A stretch of 64,000 nt of DNA from Candidatus Altiarchaeia archaeon (GCA_049299895.1 JBAQYF010000031.1:96644-160643), one strand, 5' to 3'. Numbered from the stretch's first letter, positions 30,789 to 50,571 are shown. Notes: generated from the sequence alone by a model not told the origin. Program-made: numbers and translations.

Positions 30789-30852
30789 GTTAACCACTCC
30801 TCTAGACGATAGTGCATCATTAATTAATGGGAATAGGTATAAATATCGTTTT

Positions 30853-31860: not shown

Positions 31861-31927
31861 ATATAAAAAACATATATAAATCAGTTATACCTTAATAGTA
31901 ACTGTGCCTTCAGGTGTTAAAAAGATT

Positions 31928-34900: not shown

Positions 34901-37900
34901 GCCCTGGAAGCAGAGCCGGGCAAAAAAGGGGATTCATTCCACGGCGTGCCCTATAATGGAAAGTGCCCGGCAGGTTTCCCGAAAGAGCCCATACAAATAG
35001 ATTATTACACAAGGCCCGCGGACGATGCAATGTGGAGCGTCGACGCCGGCGCCCTGGACCAGGGTCAGGTTGCGACCAAATGCTATCTTGACGGGGGAGT
35101 TATAGCGACGACGACATTCGATTTCAATTCATTGAAGGATAACGGACCTCTTGTGGATATGGTTTTCGTCATAGACACATCGGGTTCCATGGATCCCACA
35201 TGGGGCACCCTATGCGACATTATAGACCAAAAAGTCGTAAATACCCTCCATGATGCGGGCATCAACCTGCAGCATTATATATACGGGCTGGATAAAATTA
35301 AAAAATGCGCCAAGGGAGTTATACCGCTGCACGAAGAGAGCTGGGGCCCTGGGCTGGACTGGGTTTGGGAAAACCACACAGGCTGGAGAGAGGGGGCCAA
35401 AAGAGTTGTCATTGCGATAAGCGACCAAGACGGGGAAAAGGGAGAAGACAACCCGGAGTGGGACGAAACAAAACAGAGAAGTGTCGCAGGACACCTCATA
35501 AGCAAGAACATAATAATGAACGGCCTCTTCGTGTCGGGCGGAGATCCAAAAGTCCAGACAGAGATGGCGACAGTTTCCGGCCTGACAGGGGGGATCACCG
35601 CTCCTTTCGGCTCCGCGGAAGCGGTCGCAGAGAAATTGATAGAAATTGCTAAGGACATCAAAAAACCGGTATACGTTGTCGCCAGCAACGCCACTATCTA
35701 CATGAACCAGACCGCGCCCAACGTATGGGTTCTCTACCAGAACGAGAGCCAGAACGTATCAGTCAACGTTTCCAAGACCAAGGCAAAGACATCGAACGAA
35801 GAGAACCCGGGCGAAGCGGCCCAGACCGAGGAACTGAACCTGACGGTCTATCCGTCTCTCATGATCGTAGAAACCGCCAATATGCCTTTCAATATCACTT
35901 ATGTGAACATAACAAGGAACGGCAGCAGATACAATATAACGAGGGTCTATGTTCCGAACGAAACGGGCGCGGACTATGGAAAAGAGTTCATCGTTACCTC
36001 GAAATTAATCCTGAATTACACCCTGCTGGAGTCTGCAGAGTCGTTCACGGTGGATCTGAACAACTCGTACTACACGCAGGTGCGAAGGGACATAGATTAC
36101 GTTGCCTGCGATTACAAAACATGCGGGGGGGGCAATTACATGAATTACACGCTCGCCCCGAATGGCAGAGGTAATACCGCAAGCTGCGGGAACATCAGCT
36201 CCAAGGGGGAGGGCAGCATAAAGACTTACAGGCAGGAAACGCAGACAGAGTTCCTGGAAAAGGAATACGGCGAAGTAGACACGCTCGAGGTGGATGCGGT
36301 AAGCCATCAGAACGTTCTCTGCAGCACCCTGGACCAGTTGAAGATAGAGGGGACGTTCGAAGAATACTATGACCCGGGCGGGAATCTTATGATATATTCC
36401 GCAAGCGACGACCCGGTTAAAATAACGATAACGCCCGACATACTGAGCGGTTTCACATTCATAGTGAACGACTCGGCCGTGGCATACAGCGCCCTCTATT
36501 ATCCCGCAAGACACCAGCTTACAAGAAAGGAGTCTGCGCCCTACTCGGACTGGGAGTGGAGAAGCCTCATAGACAAATACGGCTACCAGGATCAAAGGTT
36601 CGGCTTCCCGGAGCAGTGCAAGAAGCTGTGCCCGGCGCTGAGATGCAGCTGCCAGCCAAACGATCGGTTGAACGCCTCATGCATTGACTTTGAATCCGGC
36701 TCCTCCGCAAAAAGAACCGACTGTGCCTGCGTTCCCCAGGAATGTTACCCTGATCCCTGCGTCTCCAACAGGACGTACCACGAAGAGGAGGGAAGCGTTG
36801 TCGCTAACGGAGACTATGAGACGGGCGATCTTTCTTTCTGGAGCAAGACGGATGTAGGAGGTACCGCAGACGTCGTTCTCTCGGGTCATTCAGGTTACAT
36901 GCTCAAGCTCAAAGGAGGCGTGCAGCAGGTCCTTGCGAACCTCAGCACAAACCCGTACAACAAGGTATGCATAGAATACGCCCTCGCAGAATACAGCGCA
37001 GACGGAGGGATCAATCTCACCATCACTGTCGATGGGAAAGACAATTCTTTCGAAGTATGGAAGAACACGGAAGAATGCCCCGACTGCCTGGGCTGGAACA
37101 AGAAATGTTTTCCTGCAGACGGTTACATATCTAAAGTAAAGGTCGAAAGCAAAACCCTTGCGTGGATAGACAATATTAACTACGGCAAATACTACGACTA
37201 CGTGGGAATGAGCACATACGCGACTGTGAACCTGGAGTACATGGACTTCATAGCAAAGGGCTGGCAGTCCTTCGGCATGCTTAAAACCTCGGCCATAACG
37301 CACAATGCCAACACATACAGCTTCGAAGTAGAAAGCCTGCCCAGGGTTTACATGGATAACCGGAACTTCCAGATCCCAAAGGAGAAGGTAGCGGCCATAT
37401 TAAGCGAACTTGCAGCGTATTCCGGGCAGGAATCATCTGGGGAAGGGCTGACGGAACTGAAAAAAGCATTCGCGGAAAACGGAGTATCCCTGAATAAATA
37501 CGTGCAAGTAGAGGATAATAACGGGAACTGGCGCGTGATTAACGGAAAGAGGAATTACGATTTATACCGGGACGCAGACGGCAACATCAAGGTAATGGGC
37601 ATAGGCTATGAGTACGCGACACTCTCGGAGGACGATTACAAGAACGGCTATTTTGTGATAAAGACATTCTTCAAGGATCTCTACATCCCCATGTCTCCCA
37701 ATGTCAAGCAATCCAGAACAGGGGAAGACCCGATATGCTACGACGTAGACATCAAATTCAGGAAGCCCACCGTGCTCACAGTGGACGTATCGCCCAGCGG
37801 CTACACTCTTACGCCCGGAACAAGAGTGACTGCGACATACACGCTCACATATTATAACGGAACACCCGTCCCAAATCAAAAAGTATACGTGGATCTTGCA

Positions 37901-38506
37901 GGCCAGGATATCTGGAAACTGTCACCCGAAGGAGTATACAAAGATTACATGTTCTCTATCCAGGAGATTGAAGACAACGCAGAGCAGCAGGAAATGCTGC
38001 GAAACAACCTTGCAGCCCTCGGATATTCAGACATCGCAGAGAAACTCGCGGACGCGCAATACTCAGAGAGCGCAGGGAATAAACTCATAATCACTGGAAA
38101 AATAAGCGCTACCATTGAGGTAGTGGATGGAGTATGTCATATGCTTGTCGGCAACAAAGACATTGTTATCGGAGTTGCAGATTACTTCGGAAGCAAGCTC
38201 CTTGTGTATGAAAACGAGGAGAACAAGCTCCTTGCATACACGATAACAGACGAGAACGGCGTGGCAAAATGCTCTTTTAAGCCGACGGGAACAACGGTCG
38301 GCGGCTCAAGCCCGGGCGGCAACACGTCTTCTCCTTCCTCCGCGAGCACCGGGATACACGTTGTAAGCATCAAGTCCCCGCTCTTTTCCAGGGAGTTCCT
38401 GCTGCTGGGATTAATACTGATATTCGGAGTGTTCTCTTACAGGTATTTCGGAAACAAGAAGATAGATCTGTTCAGCTGGTGGAGGGATTTCAAAGGCAAA
38501 AAATGA
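31928..38506 (+). CDS. Giant (2192 aa) secreted surface protein with vWA domain and C-terminal TM anchor
   Basis: ATG at 31928 (a GTG-initiated ORF runs from 31904). Signal peptide 'LLCISVVFAAFFLSYSGQAFA'. vWA MIDAS 'VFVIDTSGSMDP' near 35165. Very many N-x-S/T sequons. A Ser/Pro-rich linker is followed by a C-terminal TM helix 'LLLGLILIFGVFSY' and a basic tail. Confidence 0.75.
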   Translation: MNRNKRLLCISVVFAAFFLSYSGQAFAELASCSKYQYINVKIAPEDTKNPRLEQFHGIDTGIHDSFIIQGPYNPTYICGIMLNEKLDWSTDSLAAAWAAKGTTIKKDGISIKEDLGENGNGWQLCSDEDCDSNDACRIDVGLIAASGPHCAPYGVSDEKEKSKNSHGAVMVFEQRYMEMASDNGDTSLSVSPTIYRPLYDLLCDAKGYWYACDKESCACVDDYSCGSTSEGKWDFCQYGCDPATGKCKSGEAVKDCSPAEVAVGESLGPFVDSCNIDVTLEGLDQGNNRVTLGPVTYGKDGQKDLLVVDCDGSEQVVTTEEDTGQGEKTCYVTCSGLFYEGNVLKPALEVCYRYPEPEEKEEPKPGPTTTTTTLSETPIPKKDIKPSPPVPVCKPYYEVMTVRGESSDTPEVKEPGECKYTETIEINRSDNCKKIGGDLKDENYKKIDIPVCKATGSVVEEMGKDVIGNPYDFEGERKRRGGVICDGGITDVGWNIQGDEIEISVESMSGANASGDYDDNCEYMVCLYKTNGERIKCGDGLTTQWYARAEEEVFQTNYSSMGLGQFLSLDTLLGWNIDDLGGNFQIELFSRLEGKQPETNIENQTFELCKEGFLTLCTANESEKQFWIFPTNVTKTVYWGVEGSEYSNLATKKEGTNETTWLLNNSRYLMMDLKTCMISDKYGTPNEIKYYTIANDPAYRIYVNESYGNETYYKKYLNMSLDSDYLYCYKTDLRNTSGCDEMNYNWYSFTGYNIDEIGRAYREDLKNWNKNQAVDELSTLDMGRSKVVPVYDPHPCSVSMDKDYYKEQDTITIAYTNTGIECSMALYPWSPDKSAGPVKEWTVYGSGTQNYTLKKEDAPGNYTIVLNCGECYVKDRAYVNVSIIQNVMSRVFTVSPFLEDIRNSLTWTETGDSTLYAGAGFDRYDRCALSCNASDTKFRLLSGCSNARGSDAVACSNCTDEGNCTVDSNGKCPGTKGDCWDQVCRIRSRNYALEAEPGKKGDSFHGVPYNGKCPAGFPKEPIQIDYYTRPADDAMWSVDAGALDQGQVATKCYLDGGVIATTTFDFNSLKDNGPLVDMVFVIDTSGSMDPTWGTLCDIIDQKVVNTLHDAGINLQHYIYGLDKIKKCAKGVIPLHEESWGPGLDWVWENHTGWREGAKRVVIAISDQDGEKGEDNPEWDETKQRSVAGHLISKNIIMNGLFVSGGDPKVQTEMATVSGLTGGITAPFGSAEAVAEKLIEIAKDIKKPVYVVASNATIYMNQTAPNVWVLYQNESQNVSVNVSKTKAKTSNEENPGEAAQTEELNLTVYPSLMIVETANMPFNITYVNITRNGSRYNITRVYVPNETGADYGKEFIVTSKLILNYTLLESAESFTVDLNNSYYTQVRRDIDYVACDYKTCGGGNYMNYTLAPNGRGNTASCGNISSKGEGSIKTYRQETQTEFLEKEYGEVDTLEVDAVSHQNVLCSTLDQLKIEGTFEEYYDPGGNLMIYSASDDPVKITITPDILSGFTFIVNDSAVAYSALYYPARHQLTRKESAPYSDWEWRSLIDKYGYQDQRFGFPEQCKKLCPALRCSCQPNDRLNASCIDFESGSSAKRTDCACVPQECYPDPCVSNRTYHEEEGSVVANGDYETGDLSFWSKTDVGGTADVVLSGHSGYMLKLKGGVQQVLANLSTNPYNKVCIEYALAEYSADGGINLTITVDGKDNSFEVWKNTEECPDCLGWNKKCFPADGYISKVKVESKTLAWIDNINYGKYYDYVGMSTYATVNLEYMDFIAKGWQSFGMLKTSAITHNANTYSFEVESLPRVYMDNRNFQIPKEKVAAILSELAAYSGQESSGEGLTELKKAFAENGVSLNKYVQVEDNNGNWRVINGKRNYDLYRDADGNIKVMGIGYEYATLSEDDYKNGYFVIKTFFKDLYIPMSPNVKQSRTGEDPICYDVDIKFRKPTVLTVDVSPSGYTLTPGTRVTATYTLTYYNGTPVPNQKVYVDLAGQDIWKLSPEGVYKDYMFSIQEIEDNAEQQEMLRNNLAALGYSDIAEKLADAQYSESAGNKLIITGKISATIEVVDGVCHMLVGNKDIVIGVADYFGSKLLVYENEENKLLAYTITDENGVAKCSFKPTGTTVGGSSPGGNTSSPSSASTGIHVVSIKSPLFSREFLLLGLILIFGVFSYRYFGNKKIDLFSWWRDFKGKK

Positions 38507-39813
38507 GAAACAAATTGATAACGATCATGGTAATAGCACTCTTCATATTGCCTTATCTACCCATACAATCGGCGGAAGCCGCTAACCCGTGGGACCAATT
38601 TAAGATATGGAAAAAGAAGGCCCCGGTAAAGGACCTTAGGAATTACCTGGCATACGAACACTATGAGCATGAAAAACTCATCCTGTATCTGCTCGTACTG
38701 GGGATATACACATGGAACATAACGACAGACCTCCTAACCAACCTGGAGACGTATGTCATTATGAACCCGAAGCCCCTGGAGCCCTCGGTCCTGAACGTTA
38801 TGAATTTTTTCATCTTCAACCTGCAGGTAGCATACATCCTGGCCATCGCCGGAACCGCTCTTTATATAATCTTTGCGGCGGGAACGCCCAAGAAGAGGGC
38901 AAAGGCCAAATCCATGATGGGAAGGCTCGTAGTGGGGATGCTCCTTGTAAGCGTATCGCCCTACATCATAAATCTATTCTTAAATTTCACATCCGGCATG
39001 GCCGCAACCATCCTGAACCAGGCGGACAGCACTGTTGCTGCGACAGTATATACTGACCTCATATGGAAAACATACTGGCCGAGCGTGGCCATAATACTGG
39101 CCCCCATGGTAGGGCACTCTCTTGAACAGTGGAGCCACCATGCAGTGGTAGATAAAATCAGAAATGATTATGTAGCATCAAGCGCAGACGCCAGAAGGGA
39201 CAACGTAGTAGAGCAACTCCTCGGAGCAGGAAACCCGGAAGCCATCATTGCAGATACTGCAGATACGATTATGAAGGATCAGGAGCAGATCATCAGAAAG
39301 GATGGAAACTTCAAGGCTGACGCTAAATCGTGGGGTCAAAAACAGGGTTTTCTAAGCTGGGGAACGCTGGAATCGAAGTTTAAACTCATGAAGATAGCCC
39401 CGAAGCCGGAACAGACCTTCGCCTTCCTTATGTCCGAGATAGCATTGATTATCGGGTTATATGGATTCCTCGCCCTGCGCTATCTTATGCTCATGATATG
39501 GACGGTCCTCTTCCCGCTTAGCCTGTTTTTGTCCTCTTTCGAGATGACCCGGGGCATCGGCAGGAACATGATAGAACAAACCATCTTTTGGTCCATACTC
39601 CAGGTATTCTACGCCGTGACCATAGACGTCATCGCAGTAGGTTTCACCATACTCCCGTCGGGATTCGGTTACTTCGGCCTCGGCCTGCAATTCCCGGGTA
39701 TAAGCTTATTTTTCATCAGCTTCTTCTCGGTTGCTGCGGCCTTTTTGTTATTGCTCACACCGATCCTGGTGCTGATGCTATCGCAGAGGCTCAGCCAGAT
39801 GGACGTGGGCTGA
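38503..39813 (+). CDS. Paralogous polytopic membrane protein 1 of 5 (unknown family)
   Basis: Its ATG overlaps the giant gene's TGA (ATGA). Signal peptide. Conserved blocks 'QVAYILAIAGTALYIIFAAGTPKKRAKAKS' and 'LRYLMLMIWTVLFPLSLFLSSFEMTRGIGRNMIEQTIFW'. Confidence 0.7.
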   Translation: MRNKLITIMVIALFILPYLPIQSAEAANPWDQFKIWKKKAPVKDLRNYLAYEHYEHEKLILYLLVLGIYTWNITTDLLTNLETYVIMNPKPLEPSVLNVMNFFIFNLQVAYILAIAGTALYIIFAAGTPKKRAKAKSMMGRLVVGMLLVSVSPYIINLFLNFTSGMAATILNQADSTVAATVYTDLIWKTYWPSVAIILAPMVGHSLEQWSHHAVVDKIRNDYVASSADARRDNVVEQLLGAGNPEAIIADTADTIMKDQEQIIRKDGNFKADAKSWGQKQGFLSWGTLESKFKLMKIAPKPEQTFAFLMSEIALIIGLYGFLALRYLMLMIWTVLFPLSLFLSSFEMTRGIGRNMIEQTIFWSILQVFYAVTIDVIAVGFTILPSGFGYFGLGLQFPGISLFFISFFSVAAAFLLLLTPILVLMLSQRLSQMDVG

Positions 39814-39845
39814 TAGGAGGAAAGATACAGGGGCAATAAAAAAAC

Positions 39846-41117
39846 ATGCAAAGGAAAAAAGCAGTCTCTGGGTTGATAATACTTGGCATAATATTGAGCA
39901 TAGCAATGCTTTCATACAGCGTCAGCGCAGCTTCGAGTTCTAATGCCGGGCAACAGGGGATGTTTAAGAGCAGAAACCTCGGAGAAGCGGTCTATTATAT
40001 CAAAAGAACGGCGTACGCGTTCATGTCGCTCGATTACAGCAAAGAGGACATGAATTTTATCATAGCCAATTTCCGGGAGCTGATACTGCTTAATCCGGAG
40101 GCTTACAGCAGAGAAGTCCAGGATGGATTAAAATTCTTTCTGGGGATTATACAGCCCATGTACATATTATCCATAGCCGTTACCGCATTCTATCTTATAT
40201 TCATATCAGGCTCGCCGGGGGGTAGGTCCAAGGCAAAAACGTTCATGAAAGACCTGATTGTAGGGATGATAATAATATCTCTCTCTCCTATGCTGCTCCA
40301 GGGACTGATGAACCTGTCCGCGGAAATAACCAATGCCATCCTCGACCAGACCGATGTGTCAATAGTGACAAGAAACCTGGAGAGCACATTCGGGACCCCG
40401 GCAAAGAAGGGCATAACCGAGATCGGAATAGACGCATTGACAGGCCCGGTAATAGACCCGGCACTCATGGTCCTGACGGACGACACAAGTACCCTTGAGA
40501 ATCTGGGGAGCTATCTTCAATCTCATTCATGCACCCTGTGCATCATGCACTGGATGGTAACGTTCACGGAGATAGAATTAGGTTATTACACGTTTCTCCC
40601 GTTCCTGCTGGTAATATGGGGCATGGGAGTCTATTTTTTCCTGCGCTTCGCAATGATCACCCTGTTCATGATAATCTTCCCTCTGTCAGTGTTATTATAC
40701 TCCTTTGAAACAACCAAAGCAGTGGGAAGGAACATGCTGGAACAAACGATAATGTGGATATTCCTCCAGGTTTTCAGCGCAGTCATCGTTGTTTCCGTAG
40801 CACTCGCCCTGATACAGGCCAACCTGAGCCTGCTTACCCTACAGGGCATCCCGGAGGAGTGGGGCGCACTTATAGTAGAAGCGTTTTTGTTGCCTATTAC
40901 ATATCCTCTTGTAGCGGGAATTCCTTTGGATCCAGAGGCTATTATCACCCAGTTAACGAAGGTGGGGCCATTTGTCGGAATCCAGATCGGCGGAGGCATT
41001 AGTATCCCTAATATGCTTGCAACCCCCCTTATTGAATTCATACCCTTCGTCGGATGCTTCGTAATACTCGTTGCTCCTTTATTTATAATGAGGCTGTTCA
41101 AAGGATTCCTGCCCTGA
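39846..41117 (+). CDS. Paralogous polytopic membrane protein 2 of 5
   Basis: 'IQPMYILSIAVTAFYLIFISGSPGGRSKAKT' and 'FPLSVLLYSFETTKAVGRNMLEQTIMW'. Confidence 0.7.
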   Translation: MQRKKAVSGLIILGIILSIAMLSYSVSAASSSNAGQQGMFKSRNLGEAVYYIKRTAYAFMSLDYSKEDMNFIIANFRELILLNPEAYSREVQDGLKFFLGIIQPMYILSIAVTAFYLIFISGSPGGRSKAKTFMKDLIVGMIIISLSPMLLQGLMNLSAEITNAILDQTDVSIVTRNLESTFGTPAKKGITEIGIDALTGPVIDPALMVLTDDTSTLENLGSYLQSHSCTLCIMHWMVTFTEIELGYYTFLPFLLVIWGMGVYFFLRFAMITLFMIIFPLSVLLYSFETTKAVGRNMLEQTIMWIFLQVFSAVIVVSVALALIQANLSLLTLQGIPEEWGALIVEAFLLPITYPLVAGIPLDPEAIITQLTKVGPFVGIQIGGGISIPNMLATPLIEFIPFVGCFVILVAPLFIMRLFKGFLP

Positions 41118-41118
41118 G

Positions 41119-42774
41119 ATGAAAAATAAGACATTGATAATACTGGCGACAGCAATGCTGATGTTATTAGCGCTGGCTCCGCAGGGAGCAGCAAGACAGG
41201 GATGCTGCTCATCACATGGGGGGGTATGCCCGGATGTCTGCCCAAGCGGGGGCATAGGATACAAATGCTGCGACGGAAGCGCACTATCGGATACCTGTGC
41301 CCCATATTATCCGTGCAAGGCCGGTTCGGGAGAAACAAGCGAAAAAGAGACAGGACGACAGGGATGCTGCTCATCGCATTGGGGCGTATGCCCGGAGGTT
41401 TGCTCCGACGGCAAAACTATCGGATACAAATGCTGCGACGGAACCGCGCTGTCGGACAAATGTGCTCCCTATTATAAAGCCTGCGCACAAACAGCTTCCT
41501 CGGATGAGGATAAGTCAAAAAAGACCCCCGGAACAGACAAAGAGGACACCCCGGGAAAAAAGGCCCCGGGAGACTCGGGCACGGAAAAGCCCCCAGCAGA
41601 TAAGAGGCCTGCAGAGACCTCCCCGGGAGAAACGCCCAAATCAGAAAAAAAATCCCTGAAGGATCGCATATTCGGAACCGCGACCGAGATAGAAAAATAC
41701 GGAGAGGATTTGGAGGATAACAACCCGATTGCGCTAATGGCTAAAGGAGCTGCCGGAGCCACCGCAAAATATTTCGTAGTGGACGTTTTCATAAGGCTGT
41801 TCTTCCAGTACAACGTCGTATACCCCTGGATATTGAATTACGGAATGTCCTTCCCGAAAAACTACGAAGAAGCGATACTGGCCAATCCTTCTCTCATGGA
41901 TTCCTCCGCGAAAGGATTTAACCCGGAGATAACGAATGCCGTCGGATTTTCAATACGCCTGATGCTCCCATTCTATGTGATGGCAATAGTCCTCACCGCG
42001 GCGTACATGATATTCATCTCGGCCTCGCCCGAGGGAAGATCCAACGCAAAAAACCTCCTTAAAAGGTTATTAGTCTCCATGATATTCTTTTCGATGTCCC
42101 CCCTCATAATAGAAACGATGCTGGTAACCTCGCAGAGCATCTCTTCTGCGATCATGGGCCAGGCGGACCCGGCGAACGTAAGAACGGTCCTTGAAGGAGG
42201 GATGTGGGGTTCTTATATCATCTTCTGCAAGCTTGGGATAACCGACCTGGAAATAGCCATCCCTTACTGGACCGCCCTTTACGTCATGGCATGGCTCCCG
42301 TATATGGTGATAGGGATGAGACAGATAATGGTGACGCTCTTCTGCATGGTATTCCCCATAGGGATAGCCCTGTACTCATTCGTATTCCTGAGAGGCATCG
42401 GAAGAAAGATACTCGAACAGACCATTGTCTGGGTATACCTGCAGGCATTCCTGTCAGTGGCAATACTGGTCATCTCCCTTGGTTCAAGCTACTATTACCT
42501 GGTCCCGTCAGAGAATAATCCGAAGCTCACAAATTTTCCAATACCCGCAGTAATGGACCGAGGAATCCTCGCGCTATGGGAATGGCTCCCCGGAGTGAAC
42601 CAGGCCGCAAGCATGGACCCCACTACATTTATACCCGGGCTGCCTGCATCGTCCTGGACCCCTCCCCTGGGGATTACTTCAATCCTTGCATTTTCCATCG
42701 GTTCAATGGCCTACGCCCTGCTCATAGCAGTGCCTTTCATGATGCTCAGGCTGCTGGGCCATTTCCTCCCATAG
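41119..42774 (+). CDS. Paralogous polytopic membrane protein 3 of 5, with two N-terminal Cys-rich repeats
   Basis: Two ~50-aa repeats, 'QGCCSSHGGVCPDVCPSGGIGYKCCDGSALSDTCAPYY' and 'QGCCSSHWGVCPEVCSDGKTIGYKCCDGTALSDKCAPYY'. Then 'MLPFYVMAIVLTAAYMIFISASPEGRSNAKN' and 'FPIGIALYSFVFLRGIGRKILEQTIVW'. Confidence 0.7.
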   Translation: MKNKTLIILATAMLMLLALAPQGAARQGCCSSHGGVCPDVCPSGGIGYKCCDGSALSDTCAPYYPCKAGSGETSEKETGRQGCCSSHWGVCPEVCSDGKTIGYKCCDGTALSDKCAPYYKACAQTASSDEDKSKKTPGTDKEDTPGKKAPGDSGTEKPPADKRPAETSPGETPKSEKKSLKDRIFGTATEIEKYGEDLEDNNPIALMAKGAAGATAKYFVVDVFIRLFFQYNVVYPWILNYGMSFPKNYEEAILANPSLMDSSAKGFNPEITNAVGFSIRLMLPFYVMAIVLTAAYMIFISASPEGRSNAKNLLKRLLVSMIFFSMSPLIIETMLVTSQSISSAIMGQADPANVRTVLEGGMWGSYIIFCKLGITDLEIAIPYWTALYVMAWLPYMVIGMRQIMVTLFCMVFPIGIALYSFVFLRGIGRKILEQTIVWVYLQAFLSVAILVISLGSSYYYLVPSENNPKLTNFPIPAVMDRGILALWEWLPGVNQAASMDPTTFIPGLPASSWTPPLGITSILAFSIGSMAYALLIAVPFMMLRLLGHFLP

Positions 42775-42778
42775 AAAC

Positions 42779-43816
42779 ATGAAAAAAGAAAAGATCATAT
42801 CGGCTTTGATAATTGCCTTACTGTTCCTGCCGCTTATGGCATGCGCCGACGACGAGGACCCGACCAGAGCAGAGCCTTTAGCGAAGGTTATCGGCGGAGA
42901 ACTCGTAAAGATGTTGGCTAAATGGTGGATAGCTTACGCCGCCAAAGACCTTTTTGAGTTCCTTATCCGGATGACTGAACATCTGCGGGAATTTATCGTC
43001 GCCAATCCCCCGATGGAGGACATAAAAGGTGCGCAAGGCTTCTTTATCTCTCTGATGAGCCCGTTTTTCGTCCTGGGGATAGTGCTGACTTCGGCGTATC
43101 TCCTCTTGTACTCGGAGTCCCCGAGAGGCAGGTCCAAGGCAAAAGGGGTTCTTGTAAGGCTCATATATGCACTCATCCTCGTCTCTCTGTCCCCCTTGAT
43201 AATAGAGCTTCTTTTGACGTTATCCTCGGGCCTTGCCGGGAGTATAATCGATTACACCGACGTTGCTTTCGCAGGGACAATGTTATACGAGGGAGGCCGC
43301 CACATGTTCGACGTATTTTACTGGCTTACACTGTTACACCGTACCGGGGGGGTGGAACTGCTGCTCCTCTGGGAGACGTTCCTCTTAATCATGAACTTCG
43401 TGATAGCAATGAGGTATCTTCTCGTCATACTATGGAGCGTGTTGTTCCCGGTAAGCCTCCTCCTGTTCTCATTTACGCCCACTAAAAGAATAGGAAAAAA
43501 ATTCCTCCACCAGACCTTTTTGTGGACATTCGTGCAGGTCGGCTGGGCCATATCAATCCTCCTGATAAACGCATCGGTCAAAGGAATGGACGAGATCATG
43601 CCCGGGTATCCTGCAACAAAGATGGGACTAACATGCATATTCCTATTCCTCACTACCCCCAGGGTGATATGGGGACTGATGGACTGGCTCAGCCTGGGCG
43701 TAGAGGTCGTAGAGATAGTCAACGCGGCGCCGCTTTCAATGGGCGCACTGACGATGGACGAGATGAAGGTGGAAAGGGCAGTAATCGTAGAAGAACCGGC
43801 TCTGGAGGGGGTATAA
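42779..43816 (+). CDS. Paralogous polytopic membrane protein 4 of 5
   Basis: 'MSPFFVLGIVLTSAYLLLYSESPRGRSKAKG' and 'FPVSLLLFSFTPTKRIGKKFLHQTFLW'. Confidence 0.7.
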   Translation: MKKEKIISALIIALLFLPLMACADDEDPTRAEPLAKVIGGELVKMLAKWWIAYAAKDLFEFLIRMTEHLREFIVANPPMEDIKGAQGFFISLMSPFFVLGIVLTSAYLLLYSESPRGRSKAKGVLVRLIYALILVSLSPLIIELLLTLSSGLAGSIIDYTDVAFAGTMLYEGGRHMFDVFYWLTLLHRTGGVELLLLWETFLLIMNFVIAMRYLLVILWSVLFPVSLLLFSFTPTKRIGKKFLHQTFLWTFVQVGWAISILLINASVKGMDEIMPGYPATKMGLTCIFLFLTTPRVIWGLMDWLSLGVEVVEIVNAAPLSMGALTMDEMKVERAVIVEEPALEGV

Positions 43817-43819
43817 GAA

Positions 43820-44962
43820 ATGAAAAACATAAGCAGAAAAACACGCAAGAGAATAATAATACCCCTGGCGGCCATACTGGTCATAGGGTTAATGCTCAAC
43901 GCCAACGCATTTGGACCGCTGGTTTTCCTGGGCTACTTTGCCAAAGAATATTCTAAAGCCCTTCCAGGCGCCATATCAAAAGCCGCGGGGAATTGGGTTT
44001 CACTCACCATCCTGCGTTTGATTCTTGCGACTTTCATCTATTGGGGCGTCTTTTCCAGGTACGCAGACGTCTGCGACCACCTGCCGGAAGTCATCCTCAT
44101 GAACCCAAAAGTGATGATAGCAGACGCGGACGGCAACTACTACGGAAACCCCCCGGTGGAGAACCTCGTGAACGCATTCATCGGCATCGCGCAGCCGTTC
44201 TACGTGCTGGCGATAGTATCCGTCGCATTCTATCTATTATTCGTCTCAGGCTCTCCCCTGGGGAGGGCTAGAGCGAAAGCCAGCCTCATCCGGCTGGTCC
44301 TATCCATGGGACTGATAATCCTGACGATACCAATCATACAGCTATGCCTCGACATATCAGAGGTCTTGACCGGGAGCATCCTCGACATGGGGGATACGAC
44401 AACGGGCATAGCGGTCATGAAAGAAGCGATCTTCGGCCTGTGGGATAACTATTTTATGGCCATCCTCTTCAACTACTGGAACTCCGTTTATTTCCTGATG
44501 TTCTCGGGAGTGATGTTCTTTACGCCGTTCGTGATAGTAGGGCTGCGCTATTTTATGGTATTGTATTTTACGGCTCTATTCCCCCTGACAGTCCTCTGCT
44601 ATGCATTCTATTTCACGAGGAACATGGGAGGGCACATATTCAGGGAGACTTTCAGGTGGATATTCATACAACCCCTCTGGGCTCTGATACTCATAGCAGT
44701 ATCCGCCGCGACAATCTCCATGCCGCTTTTGAAAGACCCTACGGCCAGGATGGGCTTCGGCCTTGCGGCATTCATAGTCTTCATAATCGCGCCGCTCATA
44801 GTAGTCAAGGTCATGGACTGGCTGGCGATGCTCATGATAATACTGACGTCGATAGAGTTCCCGGGAATGCACGGCGTCGTGGGTATGATAGACGAATTGC
44901 AGGTTGAAGGCCCGGAAACCGAGGAGATAACTCCTCCTCCGCCTATCAGGCCTCATCCCTAA
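43820..44962 (+). CDS. Paralogous polytopic membrane protein 5 of 5
   Basis: 'AQPFYVLAIVSVAFYLLFVSGSPLGRARAKA' and 'FPLTVLCYAFYFTRNMGGHIFRETFRW'. Confidence 0.7.
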   Translation: MKNISRKTRKRIIIPLAAILVIGLMLNANAFGPLVFLGYFAKEYSKALPGAISKAAGNWVSLTILRLILATFIYWGVFSRYADVCDHLPEVILMNPKVMIADADGNYYGNPPVENLVNAFIGIAQPFYVLAIVSVAFYLLFVSGSPLGRARAKASLIRLVLSMGLIILTIPIIQLCLDISEVLTGSILDMGDTTTGIAVMKEAIFGLWDNYFMAILFNYWNSVYFLMFSGVMFFTPFVIVGLRYFMVLYFTALFPLTVLCYAFYFTRNMGGHIFRETFRWIFIQPLWALILIAVSAATISMPLLKDPTARMGFGLAAFIVFIIAPLIVVKVMDWLAMLMIILTSIEFPGMHGVVGMIDELQVEGPETEEITPPPPIRPHP

Positions 44963-45012: not shown

Positions 45013-46293
45013 ATGGCAGTAATACCCATACAGGAAGAATCCCAGGCCACGATAGAACAGAAAAGGGAGCAGGAGAAGATAATCAAAGTACAGGGCGGCT
45101 TTTCCCTGGAGCCCCAGACCATAGCAATAACCTTAGTCTCGCTGCTGATAGTGTTCTTCCTCTTCTTTTACACGGGCAACACACTAGACTTCCCCTATGG
45201 CGTGAGGATAGAAATCAGGGTCCTCATACCACTTCTCACGGTCGTCCTGATAGGCCTGATAATCAACAAATCCATCGTCAACTTCATGGAATACGAAAGA
45301 GGAGTCGTATTCAAATGGGGAAAATTCAACAGGATAGCAGGACCCGGCTGGGAAGTGATCTTCCCGCTGATGGAAAGATACATAAAAGCAGACCTGAGAC
45401 TGGAGGTAATAAGCCTCCCACCCCACGAAGTAGTCACAAAAGACAAGGTCCGATTCCTCGTATCCCCGGAGATATTCATGTACGTCTCCAACCCAAAAGA
45501 TGCTATCCTCAACGTCCAGAACTACAAAAAAGCAGTGATACAATACGTAACCAGCGCTCTTACCCACACCCTCGGGGACTCTACGTCGGACTACATAGTC
45601 GCGCACATGAACGAGATATCCGACATGCTCGGGCACGCAGTAGAGCACATAGCAAACACCCCCGGAAAAGAATGGGGCGTGGTCGTTCCCAGGGTGAAAC
45701 TCGCATACATAAGATTCCCGGACGAAGTGCAGTCCGCCATGCACAAAAAAGTAGCAAGCGAGCAGTTGAAACTTGCAGCCCATGAAAAGGCCGAAGCGAT
45801 AAAAACGGAAATAGACGCCATAAGAGAAGCAGGCGGAAAGCTCACCGACCCGGCGCTCACATACATGTACCTGGAATCGCTCGACAAAGTAGCCAAAGGA
45901 AAAGCAACAAAGATAGTACTGCCTCTCGAGATATCCAGAATGGCGGAAAGCATTACAAGGAGAACCAACGGCGCCATGGGAGGGGGCAGAGAAATGAATG
46001 TGCCGCCTGAAATGGTCCAGAGATACTCCGAGATGGTGGACAACTACGACAAAAGACTCAAAGACATAGAGGGCAGGTTAACCAGTTCAGAGGGAAAGGA
46101 AGACCGCAACCGCATGCTCAGAGAGGAATACAAGAAAAAACAGCTGGTAGACAAGACCATAAGAGAGGAAGCCGCACCAAAAGAGAAGCAGGCAGAAACG
46201 CCACGCGAAAAAACGGGCGCAAGCGACGACCGCGAATTGACCGAATACAAAGACAGGATCCGCGAGATAAAGAAAAGAGTGGGAATAGACTAA
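45013..46293 (+). CDS. SPFH/band-7 (stomatin/prohibitin-like) domain protein with C-terminal coiled coil
   Basis: N-terminal TM helix. 'RGVVFKWGKF...GPGWEVIFPLMERYIKADLRLEV...VKLAYIRFPDEVQSAMHKK' is the SPFH core. Confidence 0.8.
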   Translation: MAVIPIQEESQATIEQKREQEKIIKVQGGFSLEPQTIAITLVSLLIVFFLFFYTGNTLDFPYGVRIEIRVLIPLLTVVLIGLIINKSIVNFMEYERGVVFKWGKFNRIAGPGWEVIFPLMERYIKADLRLEVISLPPHEVVTKDKVRFLVSPEIFMYVSNPKDAILNVQNYKKAVIQYVTSALTHTLGDSTSDYIVAHMNEISDMLGHAVEHIANTPGKEWGVVVPRVKLAYIRFPDEVQSAMHKKVASEQLKLAAHEKAEAIKTEIDAIREAGGKLTDPALTYMYLESLDKVAKGKATKIVLPLEISRMAESITRRTNGAMGGGREMNVPPEMVQRYSEMVDNYDKRLKDIEGRLTSSEGKEDRNRMLREEYKKKQLVDKTIREEAAPKEKQAETPREKTGASDDRELTEYKDRIREIKKRVGID

Positions 46294-46296
46294 ACG

Positions 46297-46563
46297 ATGG
46301 AAAAACTGGACACAGACAACATATACGTAGACGAAGAAGAGAACTATGTAGCAATCAGAGTGAATACTAAGATATTCAAGATACATTCCATAATGAATGC
46401 CGCGGACGAATTCCTGGAGGAGTCCAACTTTATAGTGGACGGAGACCCTGAAAAGGACATAATAGTAAAATTCGTCCCTAAAAGACGATTCAACCGCCAG
46501 CAGCTCGCGGACCTCGCCCACAAGTTCTGCACCCTGCTCGTCACATTCAGTTCAACCAGGTGA
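46297..46563 (+). CDS. Hypothetical small protein (88 aa)
   Basis: An ORF starting 3 nt after the SPFH stop. No recognisable motifs. Confidence 0.35.
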   Translation: MEKLDTDNIYVDEEENYVAIRVNTKIFKIHSIMNAADEFLEESNFIVDGDPEKDIIVKFVPKRRFNRQQLADLAHKFCTLLVTFSSTR

Positions 46564-46573
46564 AAGAAAAAAA

Positions 46574-47188
46574 ATGTCTCTGCAAGAGGAACTAAAAAAA
46601 CTGGATTACAAAGGGATAGGAATACTTTTGATAATAGGCCTCGTCCTGGGAGTAATATACGGCGCCTTCTTTATCAATAATATCTTTTTCGGGATAGTCG
46701 CAATGGTAATAGCAGTCTTCGGAAGCTACTTTGTACTCTCGTCATTCTTCGAAGAAGATAAGCCGGAGAAGCTGGAACCAGGAGAGAAGATGATACTGCG
46801 CACCATGGACAGGGCGTACATACTGTTCCCGAAAAAAGGGGGTTTTCTTACCGCCCAGTCAGAAAGAGACCTTTCAGTATACCTGACGGACAGGAGGATT
46901 TTTGCGAAAAAATCGTCCGAGAAAGTCATATTTGAAAAGAACATAAGCGCGCTTTCCAGAGTCTCCACCGAAAAGAGAATGCTGACGAAATATCTGCGCC
47001 TAAGGTATTACTTGGAAGGAAAAGAAAAAGACGCGCTCCTCTTCGTCGGGGACACAGACATATGGATCAGGAGACTGGGCGAACTCGGAGTAAAAGAAAA
47101 AGACGCATACGAGTCGGACAAAGAGGAAGACAATAGTTTCGTGGAAGACGCAACCAGCCTGAAGAGCAAAGTAATGAAAAAGAAATAG
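46574..47188 (+). CDS. Membrane protein with bacterial-PH-like (YdbS/YdbT-type) domain
   Basis: Two N-terminal TM helices. The 'GEKMILRTMDRAYILFPKKGGFLT...LYLTDRRIF' pattern resembles bPH_2 domains. Confidence 0.4.
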   Translation: MSLQEELKKLDYKGIGILLIIGLVLGVIYGAFFINNIFFGIVAMVIAVFGSYFVLSSFFEEDKPEKLEPGEKMILRTMDRAYILFPKKGGFLTAQSERDLSVYLTDRRIFAKKSSEKVIFEKNISALSRVSTEKRMLTKYLRLRYYLEGKEKDALLFVGDTDIWIRRLGELGVKEKDAYESDKEEDNSFVEDATSLKSKVMKKK

Positions 47189-47197
47189 CAGACAGAC

Positions 47198-47884
47198 ATG
47201 AAAATAAAAAAATCCCGCCCAGACAGACGAATAATGCTCGCATTGATAATACTGATTACCGCATGCTGCCACACAGCCGCCGCCCAATCCGCAACGAGCA
47301 CAACCACGACTACACCCTCATCAGGAGGCTCAGACCTTGAACAATCAGGCTTTACAAAGGCGACCTGCACGTGCAAATGCAACGAAAAGAACATAAGCGC
47401 CGTAGGCATACTGAAGGCGGGAGCGTGGGAGAAGATTATATCCGTTGAACAGAACACCGCAGCAGGCAAATGCCAGGAGCAATGCGCGAAAACGTGCGGC
47501 GGAAGGACTACCTGCGCCAACCAGTCTGATTCGGATTGCAGCACATGCTGCGATACGTTCTGCACGAGCAGCTACAGCGGAGAAGCCGGAACAAGCACGG
47601 CAGCAGGCAAAACGCCGACCGATTTATGCAAAACATCATGCAAGAGCACGTGCAAATTCAAGGGAACCATAAACGGCATAACCGGCATAATATACATGAT
47701 AGCAGGGATGCTGGGCGCGCTCATGATAGCAATTCACGGGATAAGGATGGTAACGTCCCAGGACCCCCACGACAGGGACGCTGCAAAAAGCAGCATACTC
47801 CATGTGATAATAGCGTTGATCATAATTGCGATGGCTTCGGCGCTGGTCAACATGTTCATAACCATGGGGGGCTTGGAGATATAA
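47198..47884 (+). CDS. Small secreted Cys-rich protein with C-terminal helix-loop-helix membrane hairpin (pilin-like topology)
   Basis: Signal peptide, a Thr-rich linker 'ATSTTTTTPSSGG', ~20 Cys in ~100 aa, then two hydrophobic helices separated by 'HGIRMVTSQDPHDRDAAKSS'. Confidence 0.55.
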   Translation: MKIKKSRPDRRIMLALIILITACCHTAAAQSATSTTTTTPSSGGSDLEQSGFTKATCTCKCNEKNISAVGILKAGAWEKIISVEQNTAAGKCQEQCAKTCGGRTTCANQSDSDCSTCCDTFCTSSYSGEAGTSTAAGKTPTDLCKTSCKSTCKFKGTINGITGIIYMIAGMLGALMIAIHGIRMVTSQDPHDRDAAKSSILHVIIALIIIAMASALVNMFITMGGLEI

Positions 47885-47912: not shown

Positions 47913-49841
47913 CTAAAACGCCGCTTTCATGATAACGTATCCGTCGGACACCAACTTATCAATGATGTACTTGATGGCTGCAGGAGTAAGCTTTGTCTCC
48001 CGGGCAAGGTCATCGAGGCTCTTTTTACCGTCCACTTTTTCCATGATCTTTATTATCTGAGGATACTTGGCGTATTTCAATTTATCCATGAACCCTATTT
48101 TTTTCTTAAGCTGCGGAACATCCATCGGAGGGAGGGGCGGAGGCTGAGCCTGCGCAACGAGCAAAGCCTCAGTCACTTCCTCTTTTTTGATCACTATCTC
48201 CCGGGCATCCGCGGCCTGCTTCTTGATTTCTTCTCTCAGCAGTGCGCATTGAGCCAAAGGCGTTTTTGACTTGAGGGGCGCGACTGTTCCAGTTATTTCA
48301 TCCGGCTTCTTTTCAGAAGAGACCGGGGCATCCGCACCATCTATCCCCACAAAACGCTTCTTTCTCTTGTCCCAGCCCCAGTATACGTCTACTTCTTTTT
48401 TGAGGTCGCTTATCTCAGAGGAAGTCTTCTCATCCCATTCTTCTCCGGATGCTTCCTTGATCTTTTCTATAATGGATTCCTGATCCAGTGACGAGGAAAC
48501 GCCCGCCTCCAGATCGTCCCGGTTAGAAACATCCTGAGGGGGCGCACTATCCAAAGGAGGGGATTCAGCCTGCTTGACCGCTTCGCTATCCGTATTCGGG
48601 ATATCCCCAGGCCTGGGCGCAGCGACTACTCCTTCCAGCTTCTTCTTTTTCAGCCTCTGAAGGGTCGCATTCGCCCTTGCAAGCCATTGATCAGAAGGAG
48701 CCGGGGGGGAATGATCCACCGGAGCCTCCTCCGCAGCAGGCTGAAGCTTCTCATCGGGCATAGAATCATTCATAGGCGCAGAGACGGCATTTTCCGATAA
48801 TCGATTATGATTTCTACCCAGTATTGCATCTCTTACCCGCTCATTGAAATCGTCCGACAAGGTCTTATCAGATGAGGCAGTCTCTGCTTTCTGCTCCTTG
48901 GTATCCGCCCCGTGAAAAACCCCCTGAAGCTCCCGGCGTAATTGCACGGTCTCGGAAGACTCCTGAACATTCGACTGCGCATCTATCTTCTTTTCCCCGT
49001 CCTTTTCTTCCTGCCCGCTCCCGGGAACAGAACCGGAGGATATCTTCTCCCAGGGATCCTCGCGCAGGATCATCTCATCAAGGCTTTTTTCATCAGAAGA
49101 ACCGGATTCATCCGTCTTTACAGGACCATTATAAGACTTCCTCTCAGGACCCGCGTTTCCGGAGGGATGCCCGGACTGCGCAGGCGACGTCCCTTTAGAA
49201 GGCGCCTGTATACCTATCTCCTTGACGGCCTGAACCCCGGAAGAAAGAACGCCCGCATTATCGGACCCCTCTCCCTGCGAGCGATTAACAGCCCCGCCAG
49301 TCACCGTTTCACTGGAACGATCCTTTAGGTCGGCGTTTAATATCATCTCCAGATAAGGCTTTTCACGCTCCTCAAACTGCTTCCACTTGGCCTCAAGCTC
49401 CTTCCACTGGCTCTCAAGGTCGACGAGGCCTTCTTTGCGTATGTCCTCATCCACATGGCCTATCTCTTCCAGTGTCTTTCCCAGGTTTCTCACCAGTTCC
49501 AGGAGGATTGATTCATTTGCGGCAACGTATGGCTTGAATTCAGAATCCGCAAGCTCGTATACGGCAAACCCGCCTGATGACTCTTTGATAAGGTCCACTA
49601 AACCCAAAAATGCTTTTTCTCCGAGTAATTGCGCCCCGTCTTCGGAGCACGCAATGGAGGCGCCTATAATAAAGCCGTTCTGCAAGACCAGATCAGACTC
49701 ATACGTTTTTTGCTCCCGGAGCATCCTGACCCGGACCACGCCCTTAAAACTCTCCGGAAGGTCTCTTAGCATAGACCCTATGTTCTTCAGGTCTCCTGCC
49801 GCAATTCTCTTCTCCAATGAAAAATCCATTTTCGGATTCAT
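47913..49841 (-). CDS. Hypothetical protein: structured N-domain + ~400-aa disordered region + C-terminal winged helix
   Basis: ATG at 49841 (a TTG-initiated ORF runs to 49865). Low-complexity S/E/P/K-rich centre. The C-terminal 'DDLARETKLTPAAIKYIIDKLVSDGYVIMK' is wHTH-like. Confidence 0.5.
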   Translation of the reverse strand: MNPKMDFSLEKRIAAGDLKNIGSMLRDLPESFKGVVRVRMLREQKTYESDLVLQNGFIIGASIACSEDGAQLLGEKAFLGLVDLIKESSGGFAVYELADSEFKPYVAANESILLELVRNLGKTLEEIGHVDEDIRKEGLVDLESQWKELEAKWKQFEEREKPYLEMILNADLKDRSSETVTGGAVNRSQGEGSDNAGVLSSGVQAVKEIGIQAPSKGTSPAQSGHPSGNAGPERKSYNGPVKTDESGSSDEKSLDEMILREDPWEKISSGSVPGSGQEEKDGEKKIDAQSNVQESSETVQLRRELQGVFHGADTKEQKAETASSDKTLSDDFNERVRDAILGRNHNRLSENAVSAPMNDSMPDEKLQPAAEEAPVDHSPPAPSDQWLARANATLQRLKKKKLEGVVAAPRPGDIPNTDSEAVKQAESPPLDSAPPQDVSNRDDLEAGVSSSLDQESIIEKIKEASGEEWDEKTSSEISDLKKEVDVYWGWDKRKKRFVGIDGADAPVSSEKKPDEITGTVAPLKSKTPLAQCALLREEIKKQAADAREIVIKKEEVTEALLVAQAQPPPLPPMDVPQLKKKIGFMDKLKYAKYPQIIKIMEKVDGKKSLDDLARETKLTPAAIKYIIDKLVSDGYVIMKAAF

Positions 49842-49851
49842 CTCTCGCTGT

Positions 49852-50571
49852 TCATTCAGGGTCAAGCAATATCACGCCCTCAAAGGGATCTATTTTGAAA
49901 GGGATCAATACCTCATCCCGACCGCAGTCGCCCCACGCCATCTTGGGTAGGGTAAGGTATTCCTGGAGTATCACTTTATCTTCAACGGCTTTAAGCGCGA
50001 CAACTGCGTCGGAGAGTTCTTCCAGACGCTCCAGAACACGCAACTCATAAGGCCACTCCGTGAAAAGGAATACCCCTGTCGCATTGTTCTTCCGGAAAAG
50101 ATTCTTCCAGGAAAGAAACTCATCCAGCGATTCACTGCCGCATTGATCTATGAGCGTGGAAACTGAGTCATAAACGACGAGGGTATGATTGTTACCTGCA
50201 CTTGCGAGCGCGCCCTCAAGCGCCTTGGTTATGGAACACACATCCTTTGGATTCTTAACCTTGAACCGGCCGGACGGCGTTGCCCTGACGAGCCCCGAAT
50301 AGGCATCCACGAATATGAGCCGGTTGCCCCGCACATACCTGGCGGCATCCCAGCCGAATGAACGCATCTCGTATTCAACCGACGAAATATTCTTGCAGCA
50401 CGTAACGTAAACGCATGAATCACCCTCTTTGAGAGCCTCCACTGCTATCCTGTAAGCAAAAGGCGAGTTCTGCACGCCGGGATACGCCCACAATGTAGTA
50501 ATAGTATTATGGCGCAAACCCCCGTCCAGGAATTCATCCAGCCTCAAGATATTAGTCTTTCGAACACCCAT
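49852..50571 (-). CDS. KaiC/RecA-superfamily domain protein with degenerate Walker A (likely ATPase-dead)
   Basis: 'LDEFLDGGL...TLWAYPGVQNSPFAYRIA' matches the KaiC-like N-terminus, but the GxxGxGKT motif is replaced. 'RSFGWDAARYV' is KaiC-like. Confidence 0.6.
   Translation of the reverse strand: MGVRKTNILRLDEFLDGGLRHNTITTLWAYPGVQNSPFAYRIAVEALKEGDSCVYVTCCKNISSVEYEMRSFGWDAARYVRGNRLIFVDAYSGLVRATPSGRFKVKNPKDVCSITKALEGALASAGNNHTLVVYDSVSTLIDQCGSESLDEFLSWKNLFRKNNATGVFLFTEWPYELRVLERLEELSDAVVALKAVEDKVILQEYLTLPKMAWGDCGRDEVLIPFKIDPFEGVILLDPE

Follow-up and report, generated by a model that had tools for sequence, protein, structure and literature searches.

The DNA considered here is a stretch of 64,000 nucleotides (hereafter, the window) from a metagenome-assembled genome (MAG) of a Candidatus Altiarchaeia archaeon (GCA_049299895.1 JBAQYF010000031.1:96644-160643), in which five co-directional open reading frames (ORFs) on the + strand, designated P1 to P5, fill positions 38503-44962 (Table 1). 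The intergenic gaps are 32, 1, 4 and 3 nt, and the start codon of P1 (ATG) and the stop codon of an upstream gene for a protein of 2200 amino acids overlap (ATGA at 38503-38506); this spacing suggests that the genes of the array are translationally coupled. The proteins are identical to hypothetical proteins at NCBI, namely WAX07_10845 (P1, 436 aa), WAX07_10850, WAX07_10860 and WAX07_10880. An original prediction, made from the DNA alone, had described five tandem paralogs that share two strongly conserved membrane blocks around an SP-x-GR-x-KAK loop and differ in their ectodomains, the third paralog bearing Cys-rich repeats, and this description holds throughout: the ORFs are present, all pairwise BLASTP comparisons give E-values of 1e-12 to 7e-32 (database size 1e8), the mutual identity in a MAFFT alignment is 25-29%, and the invariant columns of that alignment reproduce both blocks. 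Judged by sequence, P1-P5 are true paralogs, their similarity being far beyond chance.

All five proteins have the same order of parts: a signal-like helix, a variable region, block A, an extracytoplasmic segment, block B and 2-3 more hydrophobic helices. Block A consists of two hydrophobic helices joined by a loop of the form [ST]-P-x-x-R-x-x-A-K, its invariant columns being NP...I...Y...P..R..AK...L...I....D, whereas those of block B are R...FP...F...G...T..W...Q; the block coordinates were computed, with two NP positions set by eye from the MAFFT alignment. The sequence N-terminal to block A ranges from 75 to 255 aa, signal peptide included. In P1 the signal peptide and ectodomain are followed by the block A hairpin and then by an extracytoplasmic insert of ~150 aa, by which the segment between the two blocks exceeds that of the other paralogs. 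The ectodomain of P3 (~230 aa) contains two copies of a Cys-rich unit of ~40 aa (RQGCCSSH.GVCP.VC...GYKCCDG.ALSD.CAPYY, within 41119-41500), to which no known domain could be matched, and then a linker rich in Pro, Lys, Glu and Thr. Ortholog searches with P1 and P4 indicate that P4 is the more conserved of the two, and the position-5 proteins of other lineages have long C-terminal extensions that bring them to 498-790 aa in total. Hydropathy profiles give a signal peptide and 5-6 hydrophobic segments in each protein, with which the helices of the AF2 model agree, and both basic loops (GRSKAK and T[KR].G[RK]) come to lie on one side of the membrane. Taken with the positive-inside rule, this predicts a topology typical of VirB6: a polytopic protein with an extracytoplasmic N-terminus, ~5 transmembrane (TM) helices and a large extracytoplasmic loop.

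Sensitive searches place these proteins with the TrbL/VirB6 components of type IV secretion systems (T4SSs). A profile of 77 diverse family members, compared with 177,635 distinct PDB sequences, gave a single match, to TrwI, the VirB6 protein of R388, over block B; at an E-value of 0.9, this is not significant by itself. Alignment with hhalign against five VirB6 sequences from plasmid records again picked out the block B region, weakly (E 0.03, probability 1.7). When the model of P4 was compared with the PDB using Foldseek, the top five hits were all TrwI chains (probability 1.00, target TM-score 0.45-0.52), the rest of the top ten had probabilities of at most 0.44 and TM-scores of ~0.15, and lower TrwI chains returned at 0.84-0.96; the predicted model thus matches the fold of a solved VirB6 structure. 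Moreover, each window paralog directly matches two single proteins in phmmer searches: P0086 (E 1e-19 to 7e-29), which carries a confident precomputed Pfam annotation as TrbL_3 (PF19590), and P0194 (MBM3308945.1, labelled Candidatus Altiarchaeales; E 4e-9 to 4e-15). The locus of the latter (L020) is canonical, with the VirB6-like gene, a PrgI/VirB3-like gene, a VirB4 gene (DUF87, P-loop_TraG, AAA_10) and three small T4SS_pilin genes. Distant members of the family also give sub-threshold matches to TrbL (5.7e-4, 5e-3) or TrbL_4 (2e-3) right behind a pilin-like hairpin. The transitive homology to recognised TrbL/VirB6 members is therefore significant, and we regard P1-P5, on these comparisons, as very divergent archaeal relatives of TrbL/VirB6 with a pilin-like N-terminal hairpin. 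The original prediction had found no match to VirB6/TrbL; its structural description stands, but a remote kinship now replaces the missing family assignment.

Platform proteins of the GspF/PilC/FlaJ/TadC type (T2SSF, PF00482) were considered and rejected, there being no T2SSF domain and no sequence or fold signal, and the same applies to ABC and MFS permeases, for which neither kind of signal was seen. The proteins are not a common annotated permease family, the outcome that the original prediction had named as counting against it, and no model of Pfam or NCBIfam reaches its threshold on them. Alternatively, the array could represent a new family of channels or transporters unrelated to type IV secretion, its likeness to VirB6 and to pilins being the convergence of hydrophobic helices, as the lack of a curated model at threshold and the low hhalign score might be taken to indicate. 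Independent methods nevertheless converge on the one target, TrwI, the direct and significant matches reach a member that sits within a VirB3-VirB4-pilin locus, and a genuine TrbC/VirB2 pilin is encoded in the same operon; this possibility is already largely refuted, and we hold it to be highly improbable.

Block A resembles a VirB2-type pilin. The Pfam T4SS_pilin model matches block A of P2, P4 and P5 below threshold (E 0.003-0.05; 0.0031 at aa 96-152 of P2 and 0.0037 for P5), and 43 of the 77 family members match it (PF18895) at E <= 0.1, the best at 4.7e-7. The NCBIfam matches to P1-P5 are weak and are to a pLS20 conjugation membrane protein (pLS20_p028, sub-threshold at E 0.0011 on P2) and to a Mycoplasma ICE pilin-like protein. 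The pilin encoded downstream in the operon (47198-47884) aligns with block A of P4, the loops TSQDPHDRDAAK and SESPRGRSKAK having the pattern S..P..R..AK in common, and an iterated search seeded with this pilin gathers block A of every paralog from every locus; because the operon pilin both aligns with block A and collects it, we take block A to be a VirB2-pilin-like hairpin. Its scores against PF18895/PF04956 are 14-18 bits, against a cut-off of 26.6, and the proteins are 345-551 aa long with further TM helices; hence it is not a pilin in its own right but a pilin-like module of a VirB6-like protein. A similar relationship has been described elsewhere, in that the N-terminal parts of CedA and VirB6 resemble CedA1 and VirB2 (PMC9905601).

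When 1.84 billion cluster representatives were searched exhaustively with a profile, 383 relatives had E <= 1e-3, and 305 of these had E <= 1e-10; a first profile search of a word-indexed protein database had given mostly P1 orthologs, and single-protein searches as well as the exhaustive one were needed. In a scan that took one genome for each GTDB species, close relatives were confined to Altiarchaeota/Altiarchaeales MAGs. When all fetched loci were searched locally with an HMM, exactly five tandem family members were found in 9/9 independent complete loci (the window, L001, which is on the same contig as L011, L003, L004, L013, L014, L015, L017 and L023), with array junctions that are short or overlapping in the other genomes too. 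Positional orthology was compared in seven complete loci and one cut at a contig end (L012): the protein at each position best matches that at the same position in every other locus, down to ~28-35% identity, the exceptions being the position-5 queries against L012, which has lost that gene at the contig end, and a single case in which position 1 matched position 2. It follows from orthology at such low identity that the five-fold duplication is old, that each copy has been retained and that their order is frozen.

Multiple VirB6 genes in the Rickettsiales are often assumed to be alternative variants, and the five VirB6-like proteins described here might likewise not belong to one complex, but be separate homo-oligomers or alternates specialised for particular partners, substrates or conditions. 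The ectodomains do differ strongly between positions and lineages, as illustrated by the Cys repeats of P3 and by the von Willebrand factor A (vWA) domain of the third paralog in L017, and long members (P0086, P0122 and P0130) carry Ig-like C-terminal extensions; nor is the number universal, since Rickettsia keeps five VirB6 genes and Anaplasma has several paralogs (PMC2653234; PMC7648143). Separate variants, however, should vary in copy number, yet there are five in all nine loci, with order and orthology fixed to ~30% identity, and the tight or overlapping junctions suggest equimolar co-expression; we consider this arrangement unlikely. The constant number, the positional orthology and the gene spacing, all of them sequence observations, together strengthen the case for a hetero-oligomer, and the fixed set of five suggests, but does not prove, that the array encodes the base, built of five different subunits, of a surface filament or adhesion apparatus.

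Table 1. Genes of the array and of its surroundings (positions in the window; block entries give residues, nucleotides and, for block A, the loop)
Feature	Position	Strand	Length (aa)	Block A	Block B	Other features
P1, VirB6-like paralog 1	38503..39813	+	436	96-183; 38764-39027; TPKKRAKAK (38884-38910)	334-371; 39478-39591	from ATG at 38503; upstream GTG 38479
P2, VirB6-like paralog 2	39846..41117	+	423	83-170; 40092-40355; SPGGRSKAK	267-304; 40644-40757	
P3, VirB6-like paralog 3	41119..42774	+	551	~256-350; ~41884-42168; SPEGRSNAK	401-438; 42319-42432	Cys-rich ectodomain
P4, VirB6-like paralog 4	42779..43816	+	345	76-161; 43004-43261; SPRGRSKAK	212-249; 43412-43525	shortest paralog; structure model made
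P5, VirB6-like paralog 5	43820..44962	+	380	~95-192; ~44102-44395; SPLGRARAK	243-280; 44546-44659	
Giant secreted Cys-rich protein	31904..38506	+	2200			71 Cys; signal peptide
Pilin-like protein, divergent	30853..31860	-	335			signal peptide; hairpin aa ~41-94; 42-Cys C-terminal domain
SPFH/Band-7 membrane scaffold	45013..46293	+				Pfam Band_7 6.3e-25; inside operon
Soluble protein	46297..46563	+	88			follows Band_7 gene; same subclade only
Conserved PH-like protein	46574..47188	+	204			two TM helices and PH-like domain
VirB2-type pilin	47198..47884	+	228			N-terminal Cys-rich domain; hairpin aa 155-220; loop TSQDPHDRDAAK
Divergent pair	47913..50571	-	650 and 239			DUF2226-like with C-terminal winged helix-turn-helix; KaiC-like ATPase

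The giant protein encoded upstream of the array shows a trace of a vWA-like motif (DxSxS), and its C-terminus has a conserved TM anchor (FSYR/KF..DL..WW.D.RG); beyond the motif trace, no relatives were found in the PDB or Pfam. The vWA domain (PF00092) in the ectodomain of the position-3 paralog of L017 (2259-3860) is a genuine one, which parallels this trace. Giant Cys-rich proteins of 1219-2570 aa precede the array and are orthologous across the six loci compared, and one of 2121 aa precedes that of L023; the exceptions are L001, which has no full-length copy, and L017, where the contig ends within the upstream gene. In L001 (1-6474), two short ORFs of 392 and 352 aa stand in place of the giant gene, interleaved with opposite-strand gene fragments for RNA polymerase Rpb1/Rpb2 domains, which could be the result of rearrangement, decay or misassembly. 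The giant protein does not have the S_Layer_N/NosD/FKBP_C architecture of the hamus protein (PMC4975002).

Downstream, the 204-aa protein is orthologous in every array compared; its PH-like domain is probably cytoplasmic, given the charged N-terminus and even number of TM helices, and its two helices plus this domain led us to reject an assignment as VirB8- or VirB3-like. This protein and Cys-rich pilin fusions follow the array in 7/7 arrays with downstream sequence. The pilin itself scores above threshold with both Pfam T4SS_pilin (7e-14) and TrbC/VirB2 (1.3e-7), and matches the NCBIfam Mbov_0395 pilin-like model (1.5e-9); the locus thus contains a gene for a VirB2/TrbC-type pilin, as do the downstream regions of the arrays in L001, L003, L004, L013 and L015, where the pilins are usually fused to Cys-rich domains. 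The divergent pilin-like protein upstream matches T4SS_pilin below threshold (1.8e-4), and in L003 and on the P0017 contig a small pilin-like gene stands in its place. Its 3' end is overlapped by a 356-aa ORF that adjoins the cluster on the upstream side (29904-30974, - strand), with hydrophobic N-terminal segments and then a coiled coil rich in Glu and Lys with Trp repeats (EAEWKELE, VEKQWDEIK, IESMWIDVE), and in the same two contigs a gene for 263-310 aa occupies the corresponding position. The remaining genes have a narrower distribution. The Band-7 gene is confined to the subclade of the window, being absent from L004 and L013-L015, and for the 88-aa protein the only match is a weak one to HxsD, a protein of the His-Xaa-Ser system (TIGR03976), at an E of 0.006 that falls well short of the cut-off. 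The divergent pair (Pfam HTH_24 1.1e-5, KaiC 7.3e-21) lies beside the cluster only in the same subclade and may be associated with the array.

This company of genes also invites the suggestion that the array is no pilus platform but a dedicated conduit or anchor in the membrane, serving the export and display of the giant protein and its Cys-rich companions; the VirB6-like fold would then have been put to new use as a channel or holdfast, and the pilin-like proteins would remain in the membrane without polymerising. The giant gene has an ortholog at every array compared and is coupled in translation to P1, its product ends in a conserved TM anchor, no assembly ATPase is encoded in cis, and large fused domains such as those on the pilin-like proteins are unusual for VirB2 pilins that polymerise. 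All of these proteins carry ordinary signal peptides, however, so Sec export would suffice, and we know of no precedent for VirB6 as a stand-alone exporter. As the structures of the F and T pili show, VirB2-type pilins have their two termini on the outside of the pilus; because of this, Cys-rich domains at either the N-terminus (47198-47884) or the C-terminus (30853-31860) are compatible with polymerisation. We judge the conduit or anchor to be quite unlikely.

Among known systems, TrwI of R388 (PF04610; PDB codes 7O3V, 8RT9 and 8RTD) is the best and essentially the only structural and profile match: it is a polytopic protein of the inner membrane, and block B aligns with a conserved TrwI segment, LAKIALALLAGLGPLFILALIWQPTHRFF..Q. 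The identity is just 11-15%, however, and the Pfam TrbL model misses the window proteins. Moreover, TrwI is the product of one gene and forms a homopentamer, whereas the window has five distinct genes; VirB3, VirB4, VirB5 and VirB7-11 surround TrwI in R388, and none of these was seen at the array; and cleavable signal peptides together with large, variable ectodomains set the archaeal proteins apart. The closest sequence relatives are archaeal TrbL_3-type proteins of the single-copy type, such as P0194 and P0086, which give full-length HMM matches and belong to the same sequence family. They share the order of a pilin-like hairpin followed by a TrbL core (T4SS_pilin at 88-138 and TrbL at 128-296 in P0178). 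P0194 is single-copy in its 9.9-kb contig, whereas the contig of P0086 (L021) has at least two tandem copies. The single-copy type proteins are 600-750 aa in length with C-terminal extensions, in P0180 with helix-hairpin-helix (HhH) DNA-binding domains; some members end in tandem HhH motifs (HHH_5, 7.9e-19), which hints at the handling of DNA in that branch. The locus of P0194 has PrgI/VirB3, VirB4 and three small pilins, in contrast to the array with its five copies, giant protein, Cys-rich pilin fusions and lack of an ATPase; this Altiarchaeales-labelled locus is a canonical minimal T4SS, distinct from the five-copy type.

The closest precedent for the number of copies is bacterial: the rvh T4SS of Rickettsia has 'an extraordinary five copies' of VirB6, RvhB6a-e (PMC2653234). 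These are also in tandem, with a conserved TrbL/VirB6 core and divergent flanks, and are chromosomal, vertically inherited and without VirB5. By contrast, rvh belongs to a bacterial diderm, its VirB3, VirB4, VirB8-11 and VirD4 are all present, and the proteins are 674-1154 aa long; since the duplications are independent, the likeness is convergent. The Ced and Ted systems for DNA import (CedA/TedA, CedA1/TedC, CedB/TedB; PMC9905601) are, like the array, archaeal, chromosomal and domesticated derivatives of T4SSs; their VirB6-like protein has an N-terminal part that resembles its own VirB2-like pilin, with which the array architecture, compared by description, agrees, and their pili have five protofilaments (PMC9905601). 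They differ in having one VirB6-like gene, with a VirB4-like ATPase in or near the locus, and in having neither a giant Cys-rich protein nor pilin fusions; the pairing of a CedA/TedA-like protein with a CedB/TedB ATPase is not found at the array, which has no ATPase in cis.

In our opinion, the best explanation of the locus, held with moderate confidence, is a heteropentameric VirB6-like platform for a pilus or adhesin with its own VirB2-type pilins. It is the best reading because VirB6 is homopentameric and VirB2 pili have five protofilaments. In R388, a VirB6 pentamer with VirB5 on top forms the base of the stalk at the membrane, and VirB6 recruits VirB2 pilins for growth of the pilus (PMC12624023), and VirB2-type pili, bacterial and archaeal alike, all have five protofilaments, arranged with C5 symmetry or as a one-start helix with a twist of ~74-76 degrees (PMC9905601). 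The mature subunit would thus comprise, after removal of the signal peptide, a paralog-specific ectodomain, the hairpin of block A with its basic loop S-P-x-G-R-x-K-A-K facing the cytoplasm, a helical extracytoplasmic segment and a VirB6 core, whose helices would contain block B (R-Y...F-P...S-F-x-x-T-[KR]-x-G...Q-T..W). One copy each of P1-P5 would assemble into a pseudo-five-fold heteropentamer, corresponding to the VirB6 homopentamer on which the stalk of a T4SS stands, and every subunit would contribute a single pilin-like hairpin along with an ectodomain of its own. This pentamer would be the membrane platform that recruits the VirB2-type pilins of the locus with their N- or C-terminal Cys-rich domains, these would polymerise on it into a fibre of five protofilaments, and the giant Cys-rich protein, coupled to P1, would be a tip, an adhesin or an anchored partner. 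Homology, copy number, orthology and synteny are shown by the data, whereas topology, the 1:1:1:1:1 stoichiometry, the formation of a pilus and its function are inferred. The function of the apparatus would most likely be adhesion or contact between cells, possibly with transfer of DNA or protein. A bolder version, namely a domesticated, T4SS-derived machine with an obligate heteropentamer in place of the VirB6 homopentamer, an intrinsically asymmetric base that could seed the one-start (C1) lattice of archaeal VirB2-type pili, hairpins that template the five protofilaments, a disulfide-rich decorated filament and a giant adhesin, running without a VirB4 encoded at the locus and possibly without any, seems to us unlikely in its entirety; SPFH, PH-like or KaiC-like partners might then act in the role of VirB4.

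Several observations weigh against the heteropentameric platform. The match between five copies and a pentamer could be a coincidence; we know of no demonstration that the five VirB6 paralogs of Rickettsia form a heteropentamer, nor of any filament that has been linked to the array locus. With regard to family membership, the TrbL-type Pfam models (PF04610 TrbL, PF19590 TrbL_3 and PF19597 TrbL_4) give no match to P1-P5 at E <= 1, and none at E <= 0.1 among the 77 diverse family members; no Pfam or NCBIfam model reaches threshold on P1-P5, nor does any NCBIfam TrbL/VirB6 model match at E = 1. A local Pfam scan of P0086 likewise yielded no TrbL family at E <= 0.01; its TrbL_3 label rests on the precomputed annotation, because the local copy of Pfam did not list TrbL_3, a discrepancy probably due to different Pfam releases. 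A further difficulty concerns VirB4 which, to our knowledge, is the only universal T4SS component: no VirB4/DUF87/AAA_10 protein was found in the window among those ORFs of >= 150 aa that were scanned with Pfam, no VirB4 in a further 10 kb to its left, and no long Walker-A proteins in the flanks of L003, L004 and L013-L015. The same scans of window and flanks revealed no VirB3 or other T4SS ATPase, and a VirB4-family ATPase in cis was found only for the single-copy relative in L020. The array may, however, be powered by a VirB4 encoded elsewhere, a plausible source given the canonical VirB3-VirB4-VirB6-pilin locus of an Altiarchaeales-labelled MAG.

The array lies in an ordinary archaeal chromosome, near genes for ThrRS with an archaeal editing domain, PheRS, the exosome, the proteasome, SBDS, deoxyhypusine synthase, FtsY and MCH, together with a block of glycosylation genes. 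The GC content of the cluster equals that of its flanks, and the window contains no tRNA genes and no compositional shift, and thus no sign of a mobile island; the synteny of ThrRS with the array is kept in a genome at 40% identity. The apparatus is chromosomal and appears to be vertically inherited in the Altiarchaeota. Two other features of the window were noted. A LuxE-like acyl-protein synthetase, a LuxC-like acyl-CoA reductase and an AMP-binding enzyme (149-3232, + strand) head a block of sugar-modification and glycosyltransferase genes, such a fatty-acyl reductase module being unusual inside an archaeal glycosylation locus. Additionally, an ORF of 1807 aa (53451-58874, + strand) without a Pfam match encodes ~190 residues that look like a globular enzyme and then ~1600 residues of Glu/Lys-rich coiled coil with the recurring unit IEKERWKL.DE.KK.E; the Trp repeats of the 356-aa ORF resemble its repeats, and it is the source of the extreme excess of A over T (skew 0.6-0.67) at 54-58 kb.

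In the searchable literature we found no paper linking the Altiarchaeota with VirB6 or T4SSs, and a comparative genomics paper on the Altiarchaeales makes no mention of secretion, pili or conjugation genes. What is new is an expansion of the VirB6 family fixed at five in an archaeal phylum, in a distinctive T4SS-derived surface-protein locus without an ATPase in cis; it is not a new protein fold or principle. With apparently no VirB4 in cis, one may ask what drives an apparatus of this kind.

Of the core components of conjugation machines, VirB6 is understood least, and the pentameric base of the stalk, with its mismatch of five against six with VirB3/VirB4, has been seen only recently. Five different VirB6 subunits would constitute a natural experiment, in which each position in the ring can be separately labelled, mutated and modelled, allowing one to ask how five sites recruit pilins and how a helical pilus is seeded; by analogy, the answer may explain why Rickettsia has retained five VirB6 genes. 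The locus also adds to Ced and Ted a further T4SS derivative domesticated on the chromosome. The Altiarchaeota are known for unusual appendages, the hami, and the array, with its giant Cys-rich protein and Cys-rich pilin fusions, points to a further, conserved and hitherto undescribed apparatus of the altiarchaeotal cell surface.

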